Part shown: one piece after another, positions 39,407 through 47,292 of the stretch | Position numbering within the stretch: position 1 is the stretch's first letter | How the letters are laid out: every line of letters begins with the position of its first letter | NCBI GenBank assembly: GCA_963844535.1 | Contig: CAWJOP010000002.1 | Location: 668 to 64,667 of the forward strand | Origin: an uncultured Gammaproteobacteria bacterium | GTDB taxonomy: Bacteria > Pseudomonadota > Gammaproteobacteria > CAWJOP01 | Length of the DNA: 64,000 nucleotides | Direction: 5' to 3' | Notes under the pieces: model-generated | Databases searched by the model: none | The model's input: only the letters and a program-made list of their open reading frames with translations | What the model was told of the DNA's origin: nothing | Translations under genes and position numbers: made by a program

Positions 39407-40042
39407 TTAGTCTATAGGGCCAATGATTTTACGTTTTAATGCATTAATTTTCTCAAATATATCAGTAATGTCTTGCTCAAAGTTTTGAGTTTCAAAGGTA
39501 GAGGTATTATTCGCTTTGGCGCTAACTAAAGCTTGTTTTAATAATCCATAGGTTTTTGTTAAATCTTCAATTGTTTTTTCAATTAAATTTCTGTCATTCC
39601 TTATTTGTATTAGTCTCTTAGAAGCTAAACGAAGTTTTTCTATGTTCCACTTTCCCTTAATCGTTTTCCCCTTCCAGGAAAAATCAGTTTGATCGATATG
39701 CTTTTCAATTTTATCTCTACGAGGGTTTAAAATAACTTCACATGAAAATTTTTGAGTATAGGTTGGCCAATAGTCTCCTTTATAAGCATTACAATCTCTA
39801 CAAGCATAAAGTAGGTTAGAATATTTTGCTGCTAATTTTGGGAATTTGCTTTTAGGTTTATAATGATCAATGTGAAAGGATTTTGAACCGCCAAGCTCTG
39901 GTTCGCGTGTTCCGCAATATACGCATCTATGGAAAAACTCTTCCCTAAGTTTTGATTTATAAATTTTATAATGATTGTCGTTTTTCATTCTCTTTTGCTT
40001 CAATGGGAGAAATTTCTTGCTGTGTGCTTGTAGAAGTATCAA
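39407..40042 (-). CDS. HNH-family nuclease (N-terminal HNH; C-terminal helical region)
   Basis: HNH motif CVYCGTREPELGGSKSFHIDHYKPKS...LLYACRDCNAYKG. The 5' end overlaps the upstream gene by 23-77 nt depending on the start chosen. Third gene of the three-gene minus-strand cassette. Confidence 0.65.
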   Translation of the reverse strand: MILLQAHSKKFLPLKQKRMKNDNHYKIYKSKLREEFFHRCVYCGTREPELGGSKSFHIDHYKPKSKFPKLAAKYSNLLYACRDCNAYKGDYWPTYTQKFSCEVILNPRRDKIEKHIDQTDFSWKGKTIKGKWNIEKLRLASKRLIQIRNDRNLIEKTIEDLTKTYGLLKQALVSAKANNTSTFETQNFEQDITDIFEKINALKRKIIGPID

Positions 40043-40568
40043 ACTGCGGAGCTCTTGTAGGAGTATCGAGTTCTGTAGGATTAATAAACGGGGGCTCAGT
40101 GGTATTTTTTGATTCTGTTGGAAGATAATGCGAATACTTTTTTAACTTTGCTTGAGCAAACAAAACAATCTTATTGAGTTCGTTTTCTTCAATAAAATTT
40201 TCTTTTTCAAGTTGATAAAGTAATAAATCTAGCTTATCAAGCTCAATGTCAATTTTAGCGAGCTTTCTTTTGTAATAAGGCAGAAAATATTTTAAGGGAT
40301 TATCCAGGATTTTATTGCGTGCTTGAATCAAAGGTTTTTTAAGGTTCATTATGTTTTCTATAATTTGTTCCTGGTTTTTCTCAAGTGTAATTGCAATTGA
40401 TGAAGATTCTAAATCACTTTTAGTTTGTTTAAGTAATGTGTCGGATTTTGATATGCTTAAACTAAAATCGTTTAACACCGGCTTTATTTTAGCAATATGT
40501 TTATCGGGATTCTGAAGTATCAGTTCTTTCGAGAGAGTGGTAGAAGCAAAATTGATAGAACTGGTCAT
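39966..40568 (-). CDS. Hypothetical coiled-coil protein with a Pro/Thr-rich C-terminus
   Basis: 200-aa ORF. Its start overlaps the stop of the upstream gene by 1 nt (TAATG). Predicted helical or coiled coil (LDKLDLLLYQLEKENFIEENELNKI). Confidence 0.45.
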   Translation of the reverse strand: MTSSINFASTTLSKELILQNPDKHIAKIKPVLNDFSLSISKSDTLLKQTKSDLESSSIAITLEKNQEQIIENIMNLKKPLIQARNKILDNPLKYFLPYYKRKLAKIDIELDKLDLLLYQLEKENFIEENELNKIVLFAQAKLKKYSHYLPTESKNTTEPPFINPTELDTPTRAPQFDTSTSTQQEISPIEAKENEKRQSL

Positions 40569-41323
40569 TATTCAACCTCCATTAGGTAACGTAGTTTTTC
40601 AGTAATGATCGTTTCAAAAACACTACTAAGTATATTATGTGCCTGAGTTGCAAGAGAAAGTATTTTGTTTTGTACAGGGCTAATTTCTGTGGTTGTATAG
40701 CAGTCAATATCGAGGATAAATCTGTTACCTATTTCTCCTGGTTTTAAAGCATCTGTCATGAATTTGGTTCGTATTTCAAAATTTTGATCACATTGATTTT
40801 TATCGGTTTCTATTTCATTAAGTAGTGTTAAGTCAAGACCTTTTAAATTGGAAAGCGAGGAAGGGATTTGAAATCCTAAACAAAAATAGTCAGAGAGATT
40901 AATTTTTTCTTCAGGAATTAAAAAGCTATTAATATACCTGGTTGCTACTCGTGTAACGTTAGAAGGTTTTGCTAAGTCAATGTAGGCATTAATTGCAGCA
41001 TAAATTGTTTCACTAAAGTTTTCCCAAGAGGTATATCTTAAACAATTAGCAACTACTATCCCTGGCCCAACTTGCAGTAATTCAGTGCCATCTTCTTTGC
41101 AGGCTTGAATTGAAGGTGCTTGTATAGGGGGAGTATTGTGAGAAGCGCCTAAAAAAACAGAAATGTGTTTAATATCCTGTTTTTTTGGATATAGTTGTCT
41201 TACTTTCTCAAAAAATTGGCCAGGAATGGCTGAATCAAAACCTGCATAATCAAACTTTACTTCAAAAATTGCTTCTTGAATTGCAGGTTTTTTATACTTG
41301 CGCCTAATTGTTTTATTGTTCAT
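40568..41323 (-). CDS. Uncharacterised protein resembling the TIGR04255 family
   Basis: 251 aa. N-terminal YKKPAIQEAIFEVKFD and the internal ...TRYINSF motif recall the TIGR04255 consensus. This assignment is from memory and has not been searched. First gene of the cassette. Confidence 0.45.
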   Translation of the reverse strand: MNNKTIRRKYKKPAIQEAIFEVKFDYAGFDSAIPGQFFEKVRQLYPKKQDIKHISVFLGASHNTPPIQAPSIQACKEDGTELLQVGPGIVVANCLRYTSWENFSETIYAAINAYIDLAKPSNVTRVATRYINSFLIPEEKINLSDYFCLGFQIPSSLSNLKGLDLTLLNEIETDKNQCDQNFEIRTKFMTDALKPGEIGNRFILDIDCYTTTEISPVQNKILSLATQAHNILSSVFETIITEKLRYLMEVE

Positions 41324-41399
41324 AACAAATACCTAGGTTAATTTTAACAATGGTATATCATAGGCCAATACCGTATCAAATAGGTTATGATTTTTATCT

Positions 41400-42641
41400 A
41401 TGAAAATCTTTAAAAAATTTATTTCTCTTGAAGCTGCTGGTGGGTATTGTCTGTTTTTGGCAGCTGCGATTGCCATTTTATGGAGCAATTCGCCTGTTCA
41501 AGCAAGTTATGATGCGCTAATCAATGCAAATTTTATATTTAAGAGCAAGACTTTAAATTCAGTAGTGCCAATTTCTTTTGTTATTGATGAAGGATTGATG
41601 ACCTTATTTTTTTTTCTGGTCGGGCTTGAAATTAAGCGAGAATTGCTCATAGGAGAATTAAATAGCGTTAAAAGAGCCATGTTGCCCGCAATTGCGGCAT
41701 TAGGTGGTATGGTCATTCCAGCAATGATTTATGTTGGATTAAATTGGAATAATCCTGTAGGCCTTGGTGGCTGGGCAATTCCAACTGCTACCGATATTGC
41801 TTTTTCTTTAGCAGTATTATCATTATTAAAAAGTCGAATTCCCTTAAGTCTTAAAATATTTTTAACTGCACTAGCAATCTTTGATGATTTAGGCGCCATT
41901 TTAATTATTGCAATTTTTTACACGCAAAAAATTTCTTGGCTAGGGTTAGGACTAGCGTTTTTGGTTGAAATGATTTTGGTGTTACTTAATATTTTTCAAA
42001 TAGCTCTACCAATATTGTATTTTTTGTTAGGGGCTTTAATTTGGTGGCTATTATTAGTTTCAGGAATTCATCCAACTTTGGCTGGGGTATTAGTGGCATT
42101 AACAGTGCCGCTAAAAATTCAAAAAGCTCCTCGAGCTCGGCCACTCAATGATTTACAACGCGCCTTGCATCCTTGGGTAATTTTTTTATTATTGCCACTT
42201 TTTGCTTTTATTAATTCAGGGATATCGCTAAATAGTTTGTTTGGCACTTTATTTACTAACGTTTCGCTAGGAATTTTTTTTGGCCTTTTTCTCGGCAAAC
42301 AATTAGGCGTGATGAGTTTTTGTTGGGTTGCAGTACAAAGTAAATTAGCTGAATTGCCAGCGGGAATGAATTGGAGAAATCTTTATGGAATTAGTTTGTT
42401 ATGTGGGATTGGTTTTACCATGAGTTTTTTTATTGGCTTTTTATCTTTTGAAAACGGATTATTTGATTATCAAGCCTGTCTTCGATCAGGCATTTTGTTG
42501 GGATCTTTGTTATCGGGGATTTGTGGGTATGTTTGGTTGGTTTTTGTTTCGAAAAAAAATGTTGGCATTGATGGTTCCCAGGGCAAATTTGATCGTTTGC
42601 GAAAGCCGAAGCAGTCATTTGTTGAAGAATTAAACCTATAG
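41400..42641 (+). CDS. nhaA: Na+/H+ antiporter NhaA
   Basis: 413 aa. ~12 TM helices. Conserved ...AIPTATDIAFSLAVLSLL... and LTALAIFDDLGAILIIAIFYT regions (the catalytic Asp pair). Confidence 0.85.
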   Translation: MKIFKKFISLEAAGGYCLFLAAAIAILWSNSPVQASYDALINANFIFKSKTLNSVVPISFVIDEGLMTLFFFLVGLEIKRELLIGELNSVKRAMLPAIAALGGMVIPAMIYVGLNWNNPVGLGGWAIPTATDIAFSLAVLSLLKSRIPLSLKIFLTALAIFDDLGAILIIAIFYTQKISWLGLGLAFLVEMILVLLNIFQIALPILYFLLGALIWWLLLVSGIHPTLAGVLVALTVPLKIQKAPRARPLNDLQRALHPWVIFLLLPLFAFINSGISLNSLFGTLFTNVSLGIFFGLFLGKQLGVMSFCWVAVQSKLAELPAGMNWRNLYGISLLCGIGFTMSFFIGFLSFENGLFDYQACLRSGILLGSLLSGICGYVWLVFVSKKNVGIDGSQGKFDRLRKPKQSFVEELNL

Positions 42642-42827
42642 CGCTAACCCTTATTTAATTTGCTGTTGTTTGATAGCTTTATCGCTCTTGATCAAAAATT
42701 TCTTCAACAGTCTTAGCGGTGACTAATTCATCTCCCCAGGCGCATAGTTTTTTCTCATCTTGCTCCTCCTCTAATTGTTTAATGTTGTTAATATACCGAA
42801 TTTAGGGTCGCTTGAAAAATTCGTGGG

Positions 42828-43360
42828 TAAGTGTCATTCCCGAGAAGACGCACTAGTGTCCTGGGATGCTGTATAATAAGCAAACGGGCTGTTTTTCTGT
42901 AAAAAAATAAAAATATACATCCCCTCTCCCAGTCCGAAAGCATAAAAAAATCTTCAAACTTTATTCTGGGAGAGGGCCAGGGTGAGGGAGATCGAATAAA
43001 TTTTGCTATCTCTTCTCTAGTTCAGTTAAAACGATATCTAGTATTTCGTCCACATGAAAGACTAATCATTTCTTGTCGCTTAAATTTATAGCCCTTTAAT
43101 CTTCTATTTCTTAAAAAGTACCACAATTGAGTTTCTGCTTCAGTTGCTTTTTTCTTAGTACCTTCGCATGATTTATTGGTTGTACCATTTTGTGGTTTCC
43201 CCTCACCCTGGCCCTCTCCCAGAATAAAGTTTGAAGATTTTTTTATGCTTTCGGGCTGGGAGAGGGGATGTATATTTTTATTTTTTTACAGAAAAACAGC
43301 CCGTTTGCTTATTATACAGCATCCCAGGACACTAGTGCGTCTTCTCGGGAATGACACTTA
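42828..43360. repeat. 533-bp foldback element: two 161-bp inverted repeats (1 mismatch) flanking a 211-bp non-coding spacer
   Basis: 42828..42988 is the reverse complement of 43200..43360, differing at one base (cagTccg vs cagCccg). Each arm also holds its own hairpin (CCCCTCTCCCAG...CTGGGAGAGGG). No ORF longer than 60 aa lies inside. Confidence 0.7.
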
Positions 43361-43590
43361 AATTATGAGGAAGGGGAACTAACCCACAAATTCTTTAAAC
43401 GAACCGTAAATTTCTTCGCAAAGTTTTTTTGAGCATTAAGAGAATGATTAAAAACTTTATATTCCCCTGCATCCTCAAGCATCACTGAAATATTTTCTCG
43501 AGGGTTGCTTAAAGATGATATCTTAAACTTAATTTAGATAAATACTGATCTAATTACAGTATTGTATAAAAATTATAAACATTCGGCCTG

Positions 43591-43800
43591 TTAAATATCC
43601 TTAAATTGATTGATGTGTAAATCGCCTCCAGGAAGCCGTTCTTGGCTCATATGTTGTGCTTGCCTCAGTTCTTGCAGCGGCATTTCTTTTAGCATGTGTT
43701 GCGTTTTAGTCCTCGCCGTTTTTTGAGCGGGCTTAGGCATTTTTTGCCGTAATAGTTTAAAAGGGTTACTCATTAATAAGTTCCTCCTCTTGTAAAGCAT
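43591..43800 (-). CDS. Small ORF (69 aa), possibly a truncated XRE-type HTH fragment
   Basis: C-terminal PLQELRQAQHMSQERL resembles the start of an XRE/HigA-type helix-turn-helix, but the ORF is too short for a full domain. Confidence 0.2.
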   Translation of the reverse strand: MLYKRRNLLMSNPFKLLRQKMPKPAQKTARTKTQHMLKEMPLQELRQAQHMSQERLPGGDLHINQFKDI

Positions 43801-43828
43801 TTACATAATGAGAGGTGTCATATTACTA

Positions 43829-45706
43829 TCAATTTTTTAAATAGGTATAACTATCTAATCCCTGACATAGTTCCTGTAAATAACTCGAGCGTTCTTGTTC
43901 GGTTAACTTCGCTTGGGTTAATTGTAGTTGATAAGATTCAATAAGATTTTTGCTGTCAAAATGCACATGACGCAATACGTCAGTGATGGTTTCTCCCTGG
44001 GTTGGATGGTGAAGTACATATTGATTATTTTCAGTCATTTGAACATGAATAGCATGCGTATCGCCAAATAAGTTGTGGATGTCACCTAAAATTTCTTGAT
44101 AAGCGCCTACTAAAAATATGCCGATAAAATAAGGGTTTTGCTCATCGTCTTGAGGTAGTCGTAGGGAGTTATCAAGCCCTTCTTCGTCAACGTAATGATC
44201 AATTCGTCCATCTGAATCGCAGGTAAGATCTTGCAGTATGCCACGTTCAGTAAGTGGTTGATTTAACTTAGAAAGAGGCAAGATAGGAAAGATTTGTTTA
44301 ATTGCCCAAATGTCTGGTAACGATTGAAATAAAGAAAAATTGCCAAATAATTTGTTAGCTAATTTTTCATTCAATGAGTCTAATAATTCCCGTTCAGCAC
44401 GATGGGTTGCACTCAGCGATTTGCGCACTTTTATACAGGTTGCTAGGTAAATTTCTTCTGCTTTTGCGCGCTGTTCTAACGTAATAAGACCATGAACGTA
44501 CATAGTTTGGGCTTCGTTAAAAAAGTGATAGGCGTCGTGATAAATCTCAATAGCAGAGCGATTAGCTAAATGATTATAACTTTCAAAAAGATCATGAATA
44601 ATGCGTGGCTCGTTGGCCGTTGGTGCAGTAATTTCTTTAGTAAGCAAAAGACGTTCGTTTTCAATAATATTAGTGACGAGCACTGCATGGTGCGCGGTCA
44701 TGGCTCGCCCTGATTCGGTGATGATTTGTGGATGTGGTAGCTTTTCTGCCACACAGATTTCTTTAAGTGTATGAACAATATTGTGAGCGTATTCTTCAAT
44801 GCTATAGTTCATTGAGCAGCTGCTACGCGATCTAGTTCCTTCATAATCAATTCCTAAGCCGCCGCCAACATCAATACATTCAATTGGCGCGCCGAGCTGA
44901 CATAGTTCAGCATAGTAGCGCGCACACTCGCGCATGCCGCGCTGAATATCGCGGATATTGGCAATTTGTGAGCCAAGGTGAAAATGGATCAGTTTAAGAC
45001 AATCAAGATAATTAGCAGTTTTAAGTTGCAAAATGGCTGATAAAACTTGCATGGGCGATAACCCAAATTTTGATTTTTCTCCACCGGTGTTTTGCCATTT
45101 GCCTACACCAATCGATGCGAGCCTTACACGGATGCCTAGGATAGGTCTAATATTTAGCTTGGCTGATTCTTCGAGAATAATCTTTAATTCAGATAGTTTC
45201 TCAATAATAAGATAAACACGATGACCCAGTTTTTGTCCAATGAGTGCAAGACGAATATAGGTTCTATCTTTGTAACCATTACAGACAACAATAGATTCAC
45301 CTGGAGTTGAAAGCGCTAAGACCGCCATAAGTTCAGGCTTACTGCCTGCTTCAAGGCCAATGCGATGCTGGCCATGATGAAGTAGTTGTTCTACCACAGC
45401 GCGTTGCTGATTCACTTTAATTGGATAAACCGCTTTGTATCCGCCTTGATAAGCATTTTCTTTGATGGCCTTATCGAAAGCGTTGCATAGTAGGTTGAAC
45501 TTTTCATTTAAAATATCATTAAAACGAATGAGTACTGGTAGTGATAATCCTAGGGTTTGGATGGCTTGAATCAGCTCAATAAAATCGATGCCTGGTTGAT
45601 TTTGTTTTCGGTTAGGGTAAGCAGTAAGGTGGCCTTTTTGATTGATGGCAAAAAATCCATCGCTCCAATGTGCGATGTTATATAGATTTTTATTGGCCTT
45701 GAGCAT
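43829..45706 (-). CDS. speA: Biosynthetic arginine decarboxylase
   Basis: Starts MLKANKNLYNIAHWSDGFFAINQKGHLTAY at the ATG at 45706, with a GAGGAAA ribosome-binding site. The PLP-dependent fold-III decarboxylase domain is present. The listed ORF start at 45784 adds 26 unsupported codons. Confidence 0.85.
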   Translation of the reverse strand: MLKANKNLYNIAHWSDGFFAINQKGHLTAYPNRKQNQPGIDFIELIQAIQTLGLSLPVLIRFNDILNEKFNLLCNAFDKAIKENAYQGGYKAVYPIKVNQQRAVVEQLLHHGQHRIGLEAGSKPELMAVLALSTPGESIVVCNGYKDRTYIRLALIGQKLGHRVYLIIEKLSELKIILEESAKLNIRPILGIRVRLASIGVGKWQNTGGEKSKFGLSPMQVLSAILQLKTANYLDCLKLIHFHLGSQIANIRDIQRGMRECARYYAELCQLGAPIECIDVGGGLGIDYEGTRSRSSCSMNYSIEEYAHNIVHTLKEICVAEKLPHPQIITESGRAMTAHHAVLVTNIIENERLLLTKEITAPTANEPRIIHDLFESYNHLANRSAIEIYHDAYHFFNEAQTMYVHGLITLEQRAKAEEIYLATCIKVRKSLSATHRAERELLDSLNEKLANKLFGNFSLFQSLPDIWAIKQIFPILPLSKLNQPLTERGILQDLTCDSDGRIDHYVDEEGLDNSLRLPQDDEQNPYFIGIFLVGAYQEILGDIHNLFGDTHAIHVQMTENNQYVLHHPTQGETITDVLRHVHFDSKNLIESYQLQLTQAKLTEQERSSYLQELCQGLDSYTYLKN

Positions 45707-45768
45707 AGTGTTTCCTCTATTAGGGCGGCTATAATGGTGCATCTTTTTTTGAAAAGCAAATACTCTAT

Positions 45769-47292
45769 ATGCAAAAACACTCACTTAAAAGTTTACTGAA
45801 TTCTTGGATTGAAATCGAAACAAAATATGATGGCTTGATTAATCATTTATCAATGGATAGTCGACATATCCAGCCAGGCGATATCTTTTTTGCTTTAGAA
45901 GGAGGGCAAAAAGACGGTCGCATGTTTGTGCAGCAAGCTGTTGATAAGGGGGCTATAGCTGTTTTGTGTGAGAAAAAAGATCAGGCTGATAGAGCTTCGG
46001 TATTGATTAATATCAATGACAAAAAAATCCCGATGTTTTTTATTGAAAAACTTGAGGAAAAAATCGGTGAAATTGCCGCGAAATTTTATGATTACCCTGC
46101 TAAAAAACTCACGGTGATTGGCGTAACAGGAACCAATGGAAAAACTTCATGTACACAATGGATAGCGAAAGCATTAAATTATTTCAATATACCATGTGGC
46201 GTGATAGGGACATTAGGATATGGGCTCCCTGGCGATTTAAATAGCGCTGAATATACCACGCCGTTTGCTATTGATGTCCAAAGAATACTTGCTGATTTTT
46301 GTGCGAAAGGCGCTAAAGCAGTGGCTATGGAAGTTTCTTCACATGGATTGGTGCAGCATCGTGTTGCTGGGGTAGAATTTAGCTTGGCAACTTTTACTAA
46401 TTTAACCCACGATCACCTCGATTATCATGGCAGTTTAGCTAATTATGCAGCAGCGAAAAAGCAGTTATTTAATTGGCCTTCATTGCAGCAAAGCATTTTT
46501 AATTTAGATGATTTTTATGGACGACTCTGGTTTGTCGAGTATAAAAACCAAAAGCCTTGTTATGGTTATTCATTACAGCCTGATATATGCCAATTATTTT
46601 CTAAAGATTTTTTGGTTTATACACCGAGTTTTTCTTTTTCAGAAAAAAGTATTGAAGCAACGGTGGTTACTCCATGGGGCGAAGGACTGCTCAGTAGCCC
46701 TTTATTGGGCAAATTTAATTTAAGTAATTTGTTGGTGGTTTTAACTAATTTATGTCTTATGGGCGTTGCATTTACAGATGCGCTTTCAGTGATTCCGCTA
46801 TTAGATAGCTTGCCGGGGCGTATGCAAGTGATTAGTGATGAAGGAAAACCTACGGTGGTAATTGATTATTCACATACCCCAGATTCGCTTTTGCATGCAC
46901 TACAAAGTTTACGCGAACATTGCACTGGTAAGCTTTGGTGTGTATTTGGTTGTGGTGGCGATCGAGACAAAACCAAACGACCCATAATGGGAAAAATTGC
47001 TGAGCAACATGCAGATTATGTGATAATTACCGATGATAATCCTCGACACGAAAATCCAAAATCGATTGTTGCGGATATATTGTTAGGTCTTGCTATTGAT
47101 TCGGCGGTAGTTATTGAACACAATCGGCGTTTGGCAATATTGCATGCACTTACTAGCGCAAATGCTGGAGATATTGTATTGATTGCTGGCAAGGGACATG
47201 AGCGCTATCAACAAATTGGCGATGAAAAAATCCCCTTTAGTGATGCAGTTGAGGCACAATTGGTGCTTAAAGCCTGTTCAAAATCTCGCTAG
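45769..47292 (+). CDS. murE: UDP-N-acetylmuramoyl-L-alanyl-D-glutamate--2,6-diaminopimelate ligase
   Basis: 507 aa. P-loop GVTGTNGKTS. DNPR motif (TDDNPRHE). The last 7 codons and the stop lie inside MITE copy 2. Confidence 0.9.
   Translation: MQKHSLKSLLNSWIEIETKYDGLINHLSMDSRHIQPGDIFFALEGGQKDGRMFVQQAVDKGAIAVLCEKKDQADRASVLININDKKIPMFFIEKLEEKIGEIAAKFYDYPAKKLTVIGVTGTNGKTSCTQWIAKALNYFNIPCGVIGTLGYGLPGDLNSAEYTTPFAIDVQRILADFCAKGAKAVAMEVSSHGLVQHRVAGVEFSLATFTNLTHDHLDYHGSLANYAAAKKQLFNWPSLQQSIFNLDDFYGRLWFVEYKNQKPCYGYSLQPDICQLFSKDFLVYTPSFSFSEKSIEATVVTPWGEGLLSSPLLGKFNLSNLLVVLTNLCLMGVAFTDALSVIPLLDSLPGRMQVISDEGKPTVVIDYSHTPDSLLHALQSLREHCTGKLWCVFGCGGDRDKTKRPIMGKIAEQHADYVIITDDNPRHENPKSIVADILLGLAIDSAVVIEHNRRLAILHALTSANAGDIVLIAGKGHERYQQIGDEKIPFSDAVEAQLVLKACSKSR

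Follow-up and report, generated by a model that had tools for sequence, protein, structure and literature searches.

Among described bacterial systems, one to which the element reported here is probably analogous in its working is REP/RAYT. In it a small nuclease gene lies between two inverted copies of a hairpin repeat that has tens of further copies around the genome; which variant of the repeat is present depends on the lineage of the gene, and the repeat sits very near the stop codon (Nunvar et al. 2010, PMC2817692; Ton-Hoang et al. 2012, PMC3333891). Our element is a 533-nt foldback at positions 42828-43360 of a 64,000-nt stretch of DNA from an uncultured Gammaproteobacteria bacterium (contig CAWJOP010000002.1; the whole stretch is called the window below), where it lies, as an earlier annotation of this DNA (the original prediction) had placed it, between nhaA (41400-42641, +) and speA (43829-45784, -). 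Our best explanation, to which we give a probability of roughly 0.6, is that the foldback is a dead copy of a selfish, RAYT/REP-like cassette made up of a DUF559 nuclease gene and its repeats. Such cassettes share the REP/RAYT features listed above (for the genome-wide dispersal of the repeat this holds in Escherichia coli and Sinorhizobium), and differ in that DUF559 is a Vsr-like PD-(D/E)XK nuclease rather than an HUH Y1 (IS200/IS605-like) transposase, that the repeat is a three-block C/G/G triplex motif rather than a GTAG-headed REP, that they span Proteobacteria, Cyanobacteria and Deinococcota rather than Gammaproteobacteria only, and that they have extra, private outer arms and appear to relocate. 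By this analogy the element would be RAYT/REP-like in its working but not a member of that family.

Motifs of the BoxC/PIT/TMECO type have been known since the 1990s and occur in hundreds of copies in Microcystis; these triplex-motif repeats were reportedly treated by Hoyne and colleagues in 2000. The TMECO consensus, CCCTCNCCC-N3-6-GGGNGAGGG-N3-GGGNGAGGG, has 23 copies in Escherichia coli MG1655, five sites being inverted pairs, and 3,610 copies of the triplex motif were found in 262 proteobacterial genomes (PMC4666352). The triplex forms in vitro in isolated single strands only (Holder et al. 2015, PMC4666352), and the motif goes with locally raised rearrangement (PMC4666352). It is strikingly conserved among bacteria and linked to genome instability. 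The most detailed study of it reports no consistent flanking gene (PMC4666352), and the text of that study makes no mention of ycjD, DUF559 or endonuclease. In the literature on DUF559, COG2852, YcjD and the motif we found no paper linking the motif to DUF559, and a partnership between this nuclease family and this repeat is apparently undescribed.

DUF559 itself falls in the Vsr/I-Bth0305I clade of PD-(D/E)XK nucleases (PMC3424549). Free-standing homing genes of the Vsr-like type (EDxHD, I-Bth0305I) belong to the same superfamily clade (PMC3424549), are likewise small, selfish-looking genes inserted with loss or replacement of resident DNA, and would have half-sites flanking the gene if the target were palindromic. 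Unlike them, the DUF559 cassette lies outside introns, inteins and phages, no cognate uninterrupted target for it has been identified, and long private arms move along with it.

The spacer is a DUF559 endonuclease pseudogene

The arms of the foldback, 42828-42988 and 43200-43360, are 161 nt each and, exactly as the original prediction claimed, reverse complements with one mismatch; it lies at 42933(T)/43255(C) and leaves the arms 99.4% identical. A repeat search stretches the inverted repeat to 174 nt at 96% (42828-43001/43187-43360). Bordering sequence reads ...TTCGTGGG before the left arm and AATTATGA after the right one. Within the 64-kb window, a 41-nt arm probe and the G-rich motif of the arms each match the two arms and nothing else (shuffle expectation 0.00 for both), and the whole 533 nt, folded as a single DNA strand, make one long hairpin with a free energy (dG) of -211.9 kcal/mol, against -46.7 +/- 4.3 for shuffles (z = -38).

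What lies between these arms is a DUF559 endonuclease pseudogene that has lost its catalytic core. The spacer is, as had been stated, 211 bp long and AT-rich (32% GC; the arms have 42%, the whole window 39%), whereas its earlier description as non-coding stands only in the sense that no intact open reading frame (ORF) is present. Its minus-strand translation spans two frames, reading MVQPINHAKVLRKK, then ATEAETQLWYFLRNRRLKGYKFKRQEMIS, then HVDEILDIVLTELEKR and a stop, and the middle piece matches Pfam DUF559 (PF04480) with 34.3 bits (gathering score 20.6; E = 2.3e-8) at model positions 10-42 of 109. Full-length homologues (P0001-P0008, 112-124 aa, 76-94% identical) align to both spacer ends, and in tblastn the intact P0008 matches the spacer, in two frames, over residues 1-25, 12-43 (94% identity) and 97-112 (88%). 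A frameshift-tolerant comparison of the element's centre with DUF559 genes, which could have spoken against this identity, also aligns.

Pfam, tblastn and nucleotide alignment to the intact gene of a metagenomic cassette (L001, described below) place the pseudogene at 43188-43006 (-). The same alignment gives its start ATG at 43188-43186, its stop TAG at 43008-43006 and the loss of one nucleotide from a poly-A run near 43153, which shifts the frame; alignment to the intact gene also reveals a 155-nt internal deletion between ~43057 and ~43050, all on the minus strand. With this deletion residues 44-96 are gone, and they are the D..E.D..H catalytic core (IVDF...ELDGGQH...RFWN). The start and stop junctions of the fragment with the arms are exactly those of intact cassettes. 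Arms that remain so nearly identical around a wrecked gene are recent or homogenised, in agreement with the recent origin or gene conversion originally proposed.

The only solved DUF559 relative is 3HRL from Neisseria gonorrhoeae, a structural-genomics "endonuclease-like protein" without assigned function, to which P0008 compares at E = 7e-28; the NCBIfam YcjD equivalog model gives E = 4e-30. Both YcjD of E. coli and the N. gonorrhoeae protein are homologous to ours, and ycjD and the N. gonorrhoeae gene (L047) have triplex-type motifs; unlike the window copy, which lacks the catalytic core, both genes are intact, and the motifs of ycjD are on its 3' side only. A search of a genome collection with P0002 returned two distant Rhizobium loci only, and a search with full-length P0008 returned no relatives closer than those described above. 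P0002 and P0007 lie on one 220-kb contig, and it is probable that the source genome holds intact paralogues such as P0008.

Intact cassettes in unrelated contexts

In its intact form the cassette is a DUF559 gene of 112-118 aa within long inverted repeats, the innermost parts of which are triplex motifs facing the gene. L001, a metagenomic contig from ENA, has an intact 118-aa gene, adjoining relA/spoT, inside inverted repeats at 2936-3010/3372-3446 (96%) and 2740-2823/3511-3594 (93%), with outer ends at 2723-2746/3589-3612. L002 and L003, which come from two independent sequencing runs, have arms of 122 + 37 nt, and those of L022 are 136 nt long (~99%). In the window, the upstream arm on the gene strand (43200-43360, -), the reverse complement of 42828-42988, is homologous to the L001 arms at 77-87% identity, and the downstream arm (42828-42988, +) is its inverted copy in the same arrangement as in L001, L002/L003 and L022. 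Aligned cassettes have an inner module in common, CCCCTCTCCCAG-N~32-CTGGGAGAGGG-N-CAGGGTGAGGGGAAACCAC(AA)AATG on the gene-start side and CCCTCACCCTG-N-CCCTCTCCCAG-N~32-CTGGGAGAGGGG after the stop, while the outer arm, ~90-250 nt long, differs among cassette lineages.

Homology between cassettes repeatedly ends where the arms end. Over ~160 nt the arms of the window are homologous to those of L001, although the two genomic contexts are unrelated, and homology is confined to arms and gene when the window is compared with L001, L002 or L004. Arms and gene are alike and flanks unrelated between L021 and L023 (91% over 538 bp), between L021 and L024/L040/L037 (~90% over ~540 bp), between L026 and L027/28/30/31 (458 bp) and between L035 and L036 (489 bp).

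Several irregular arrangements were seen among these loci. At L004 771-958 a second cassette, with a motif and a degenerate gene start, opens in tandem 128 nt past the downstream motif of the first gene, and the contig ends there. L031 has a lone 45-bp copy of the left cassette end at 429-472, ~1.8 kb upstream of its cassette, and, relative to L027, an extra 645 bp (1571-2216) between the common flank and the cassette. In Legionella pneumophila, three copies of a segment with a transposase and DUF559 act as recombination hotspots (PMC12308824). The DUF559 gene there has a long-loop motif immediately upstream, and between that motif and a Tn5-like transposase gene 3-4 tandem copies of a ~62-bp unit (…CCAAATAG[GA][CT]GAGGGAATGATTAATTAAACTATATCTT…) occupy L059 2140-2290.

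For most of the best 120 DUF559 homologues the longest contig is only 0.5-3 kb, as would be expected if flanking repeats systematically break metagenome assemblies. Several annotated DUF559 ORFs have spurious N-terminal extensions translated from the motif (e.g., MAVRVRVRG, FWERVKVRE).

The inner arm end resembles the BoxC/PIT/TMECO motif

At the inner end of both arms a C-stem, CCCCTCTCCC, is followed by a G-stem, GGGAGAGGG, the linker CCA and a second G-stem, GGGTGAGGG. The copy facing the gene start (43200-43267, -) reads CCCCTCTCCCAG-N32-CTGGGAGAGGG-CCA-GGGTGAGGG, with a long first loop, and the copy facing the gene's stop codon is at 42921-42988 (+), at the inner end of the downstream arm. 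Each holds the stem that the original prediction had noticed within each arm, CCCCTCTCCCAG...CTGGGAGAGGG (42921-42976, +; 43212-43267, -), with an AT-rich loop of 32 nt; it is 11 bp long on the strand that has C as the next base and 12 bp on the complementary strand.

How far does this agree with the published motif? The window arms have the C-stem/G-stem/N3/G-stem order of the consensus, whereas their first loop, at ~32-36 nt, is well beyond its 3-6 nt. Also alike are the stems themselves (C-stem CCCTCTCCC; G-stems GGGAGAGGG and GGGTGAGGG), the 3-nt linker CCA, which is type-B-like, the occurrence of inverted motif pairs in E. coli and the tie between the motif and local rearrangement. Unlike the published repeats, the motif makes up merely the inner third of a 161-nt arm, and it brackets a DUF559 gene where published work gives no associated gene. 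Judged by its sequence, the inner arm end is a long-loop variant of the BoxC/PIT/TMECO triplex motif, and this long-loop form is common to the window, L001, L002 and L. pneumophila. A G-quadruplex reading of GGGAGAGGGCCAGGGTGAGGG was considered and set aside, as published evidence favours the triplex.

The outer ~93 nt of the window arm are lineage-specific and hold a dRS3-like GTCATTCCCGAGAAGACGC module and a TATAAT hexamer. Modules of an ATTCCC-N8 type are found in the outer arms both of the window (42831-42850/43338-43357, GTCATTCCCGAGAAGACGC) and of L001 (2747-2823, GTCATTCCCGCGAAGGCG and TCCCCGCGAAGGCGGGGA); they resemble the dRS3 repeats of Neisseria and the widespread palindromic repeats of the "RFRGND" type. 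This resemblance suggests that the arms are mosaics of small palindromic modules, BIME- or NIME-like. A promoter and terminator scan of the arms gave no convincing signal.

DUF559 genes and triplex-type motifs are generally associated

To compare loci, the 350-nt upstream flank of each DUF559 gene was aligned to the reverse complement of its downstream flank and scored against shuffles. Among metagenomic loci (37-85% protein identity), 19 of 24 beat all 30 shuffles, with arms of 20-288 nt, and every shuffle was also beaten by ten of the 12 named plasmid or chromosome loci (one per genus, with two Deinococcus species): N. gonorrhoeae, Azospirillum, Sinorhizobium meliloti (114-nt arms), both Deinococcus, Sphingomonas, Pseudanabaena, Picosynechococcus, Synechocystis and Qipengyuania. 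A flank score of at least 30 was reached by 28/36 DUF559 loci (maximum 260). For 178 arbitrary 330-bp control intervals drawn from the window and the long loci, 5.6% beat their own shuffles and two (1.1%) scored at least 30, the maximum being 40; these two are at window ~650-1700 and L039 ~750-1800 (scores 35 and 40).

The motif itself is concentrated in the same places. A loose motif pattern occurs 4.0 times per kb within 200 bp of the gene and 0.06 times per kb elsewhere in the same loci, a difference of ~70-fold, and it lies at a fixed short distance from start and stop. Upstream of the gene its G-rich strand is the sense strand (19 of 27 loci); downstream of the gene it is the antisense strand (16 of 27). 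Motif variants follow the gene lineage or the host (GGGAGAGGATTAAGGTGAGGG and CCTCCCCTCATATGAGGGGAGGCAGGGTGGGG, besides Rhizobium, Deinococcus and cyanobacterial forms). We conclude that DUF559 genes and triplex-type motifs have a general and oriented association. A tight-motif scan of viral contigs gave 10 matches, none adjoining a DUF559 gene, which shows the motif to be generic rather than cassette-specific.

Two hosts illustrate how the motif is dispersed. In one 3.7-Mb Sinorhizobium replicon the inner 45 nt of the arm, i.e., the motif, is present at 24 places, and it was found in nine genera, while the full 114-nt arm is confined to the four cassette-bearing records; the outer arm is thus private to the cassette and the inner motif is a genome-wide family. 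In E. coli K-12, ycjD (1,351,407-1,351,760) has TMECO no. 9 (1,351,239-1,351,204) 168 bp away, and its 3' side carries, in order, a degenerate hairpin over the stop codon, a ~50-nt duplicated fragment of the ycjD 3' end and TMECO no. 9. That fragment (L045 7205-7425 = 1,351,204-1,351,424) has the look of something left over from another cassette that decayed, or from a repair event. Among 5,426 complete E. coli genomes the number of motif places per genome ranges from 1 to 31, with 17 as the median, and 3,378 of these genomes have ycjD. The gene has been described from phylogroups A, B1 and C, between fabI and sapF, "in place of eefRABCD" (PMC12817139). In a sample of 60 genomes, motif places number 13-29 where the copy next to ycjD is retained; genomes without that copy often have 1-8, some 12-22.

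The foldback is a derived insertion in a resident gene

A JGI contig, L018, is syntenic with the window, with flanks 97-98% identical; between nhaA and speA it carries, intact, a gene for a protein of 387 aa. Blastn equates window 41400-42780 with L018 8001-9381 (97.5%), window 42762-42801 with L018 9603-9642 and window 43406-43579 with L018 10331-10504 (93.7%). Window 42802-43405, which is the foldback and the flanking 26 bp and 45 bp that align poorly, takes the place of ~690 bp of L018. No arm sequence is present in L018, and at this site it has no motif pair. The foldback is a derived insertion accompanied by the loss of about 0.6-0.7 kb of the resident 387-aa gene.

Two remnants of that gene are left in the window, both on the minus strand: its 3' part at 42642-42801, identified by blastn and junction alignment to L018 and by Pfam, and its 5' part together with its upstream region at 43406-43579, identified by blastn to L018. 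A 40-aa ORF at 43363-43485 (-) matches the N-terminus of the 387-aa protein. The gene that was hit is itself nuclease/transposase-like; its L018 product (9280-10443) has weak Pfam matches to DUF4351 and to YhgA/Transposase_31-like families and a GISQ-repeat region.

How might the cassette work?

The comparisons above give the history of this copy. A cassette of a DUF559 gene and its inverted repeats landed in the resident 387-aa gene between nhaA and speA, with the loss of ~0.6-0.7 kb, and its own gene was then destroyed by the 1-nt frameshift and the 155-nt deletion while the arms stayed near-identical. The mechanism, by contrast, is inferred. In an active cassette the DUF559 nuclease, probably a dimer, would recognise the two inward-facing triplex/hairpin motifs, and the cassette would be copied to new sites by break-and-repair (homing-like or illegitimate recombination) and not by DDE transposition. 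We favour break-and-repair because the cassette coincides with the loss of resident DNA without duplication in two cases, the window and E. coli. Lone motifs and gene-less inverted motif pairs could be products, footprints, decay products or targets of such cassettes. The window copy would be inert alone but still a strong hairpin/cruciform and a substrate for recombination, on which the apparent intact paralogues of the same genome might still act; by itself it is a dead relic for which a function is unlikely.

A wider and more tentative claim, which we would put somewhat short of even odds, is that the BoxC/PIT/TMECO repeats have their missing partner enzymes in the Vsr-like endonucleases of the DUF559/YcjD type. 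If this is true, there would be a second, phylum-spanning nuclease-plus-repeat system beside RAYT/REP, with a PD-(D/E)XK protein as its nuclease and three C/G/G blocks as its motif, and the window foldback, its arms whole and its gene half deleted, would be an intermediate caught in the act on the path from cassette to gene-less inverted pair to solitary motif. Two orphans, the DUF559/YcjD family and the triplex repeat, would gain a joint hypothesis that can be tested, and ycjD of E. coli, together with purified protein, makes the approach direct. For annotation, the cassette accounts for a class of long intergenic foldbacks and for DUF559 ORF calls with spurious "GEGxGEG / WERG" N-termini.

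A number of observations weigh against these proposals. At the insertion site, comparison with L018 gave no target-site duplication at the window junctions, where there is a deletion instead, and no clean pair of empty and filled sites, the window junctions being blurred by that deletion. The ORF encoded by the arm has no database homologue, and we know of no biochemical activity on record for any DUF559 protein. In the survey, eight of the 36 loci have a flank score below 30, and motifs are on one side only in E. coli ycjD (downstream) and L. pneumophila (upstream). The surveyed loci are also partly related, several being the same locus in related genomes; even if related loci are merged, which leaves about 20 + 12 groups, DUF559 loci still differ from the controls by a very large margin. 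In E. coli, the suggestive rise of motif number with ycjD is confounded by phylogroup, motif copies persist at conserved loci in strains without ycjD, and the sole copy in the motif-poor strain CD306, between zntA and tusA, has no DUF559 gene adjoining it. Finally, the motifs might serve to regulate the DUF559 gene, a point to which we return below.

Alternative explanations

The main rival is pure homing: did the triplex motifs exist beforehand, with a free-standing DUF559 homing gene inserting into the short spacer of inverted motif pairs, so that the two half-sites come to flank it, and the nuclease having no part in making or spreading the repeats? E. coli K-12 has five inverted TMECO pairs, and four of them face inward across gene-less spacers of 16-27 nt, oriented as around DUF559 (PMC4666352, Table 1); the kinship of DUF559 with the Vsr-like homing endonuclease I-Bth0305I (PMC3424549) points the same way. 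The motif copies kept at conserved loci by strains without ycjD fit this explanation too, as do L023 and L040, in which the cassette ends are nested within a further motif hairpin. What homing does not predict is that the outer 90-160 nt beyond the motif travel with the gene to different contexts (window and L001; L021 and L023), or, in its simple form, that the outer arm in Sinorhizobium is private to the cassette; the pre-insertion allele in L018, moreover, has no motif pair at the window site. We consider homing without repeat spreading unlikely, while taking it more seriously than any of the explanations that follow.

Could the structure have arisen where it stands? The downstream arm might stem from an in-place inverted duplication (template switching), or the arms might be regulatory or insulating structures of an ordinary gene, e.g., by pairing between 5' and 3' untranslated regions or through a G-rich structure controlling a toxic nuclease. 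Almost identical arms, the locus-private outer arm in Sinorhizobium and the fixed short distance of the motif from start and stop are all compatible with such an origin, and PIT elements, which showed no promoter or terminator activity, were left with other possible roles (PMC4666352). Set against this are the 97-98% identical relative, which is without the whole unit and has the interrupted gene intact, and the homologous 160-nt arms around the intact L001 gene in a different context. Regulation, for its part, leaves tens of gene-less motif copies per genome unexplained, and we regard either version as quite improbable.

The original prediction had suggested a non-autonomous foldback transposon. 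This was right in so far as the element is a defective derivative of a larger unit, and so was the statement that it is not an insertion sequence (IS) with a transposase; membership among classical miniature inverted-repeat transposable elements (MITEs) and foldbacks, moved in trans by a DDE transposase with the DUF559 fragment as passenger or chance capture, is less probable still than a local origin. Like Correia, ERIC and Nezha elements, the foldback is small and intergenic, with long terminal inverted repeats, no intact ORF and strong hairpin potential, and the L. pneumophila DUF559 gene does adjoin a Tn5-like transposase in a repeated segment (PMC12308824). The inverted repeat also starts and ends with TA, and a TA target-site duplication was rejected, the TA being part of the palindrome. 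Unlike those elements, it has neither a target-site duplication nor a parental IS, it has no second copy in the 64-kb window, and its centre is the remnant of an endonuclease gene that is not a transposase. No transposase with these ends or related transposase was found, the arm ORF brings no homologue to the case, and related full-length elements encode the DUF559 protein only. Nor is the central fragment arbitrary, given that it has the exact start and stop junctions of intact cassettes and that such arms surround 28/36 DUF559 genes.

Three further readings are barely credible, namely a hairpin chimera made in assembly, a switch that inverts in a programmed way and a gene for a structured RNA. 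A short-read contig with identical nhaA does stop ~14 nt into the left arm, which is what a real repeat gives because real repeats break contigs, and a single arm does fold better than shuffles (z = -2.7). The asymmetric centre, however, with its family-typical junctions and its homology to a real gene that is oriented as expected, is not that of a chimera, and many independent assemblies have intact genes within this same architecture. A switch would need a recombinase, and none lies nearby; what there is to invert is only a dead gene. An Rfam covariance-model scan of window 41000-45000 gave no match at E <= 1, while stems that are invariant among homologues give no covariation support for an RNA.

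Neighbouring sequences

Beyond the 5' remnant of the disrupted gene, window 43580-43806 does not align to L018, where the corresponding interval (10505-10602) is shorter and unrelated, which indicates a third indel at this locus. The 69-aa ORF located here (43591-43800, -), putatively HTH-like according to the original prediction, has no Pfam, NCBIfam or PADLOC match; its ends resemble those of an internally deleted antitoxin of the XRE type.

On the other side of nhaA, window 39407-41323 (-) holds three genes. Their products are an HNH endonuclease that resembles PtuB (PADLOC PtuB, E = 2.5e-23) and is unaccompanied by the ATPase PtuA, a protein of 200 aa without family match and a TIGR04255-family protein (E = 1.6e-38). 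L018 is without this whole block, and the efflux outer membrane protein gene there abuts nhaA. The block is probably a small variable island of the defence type.

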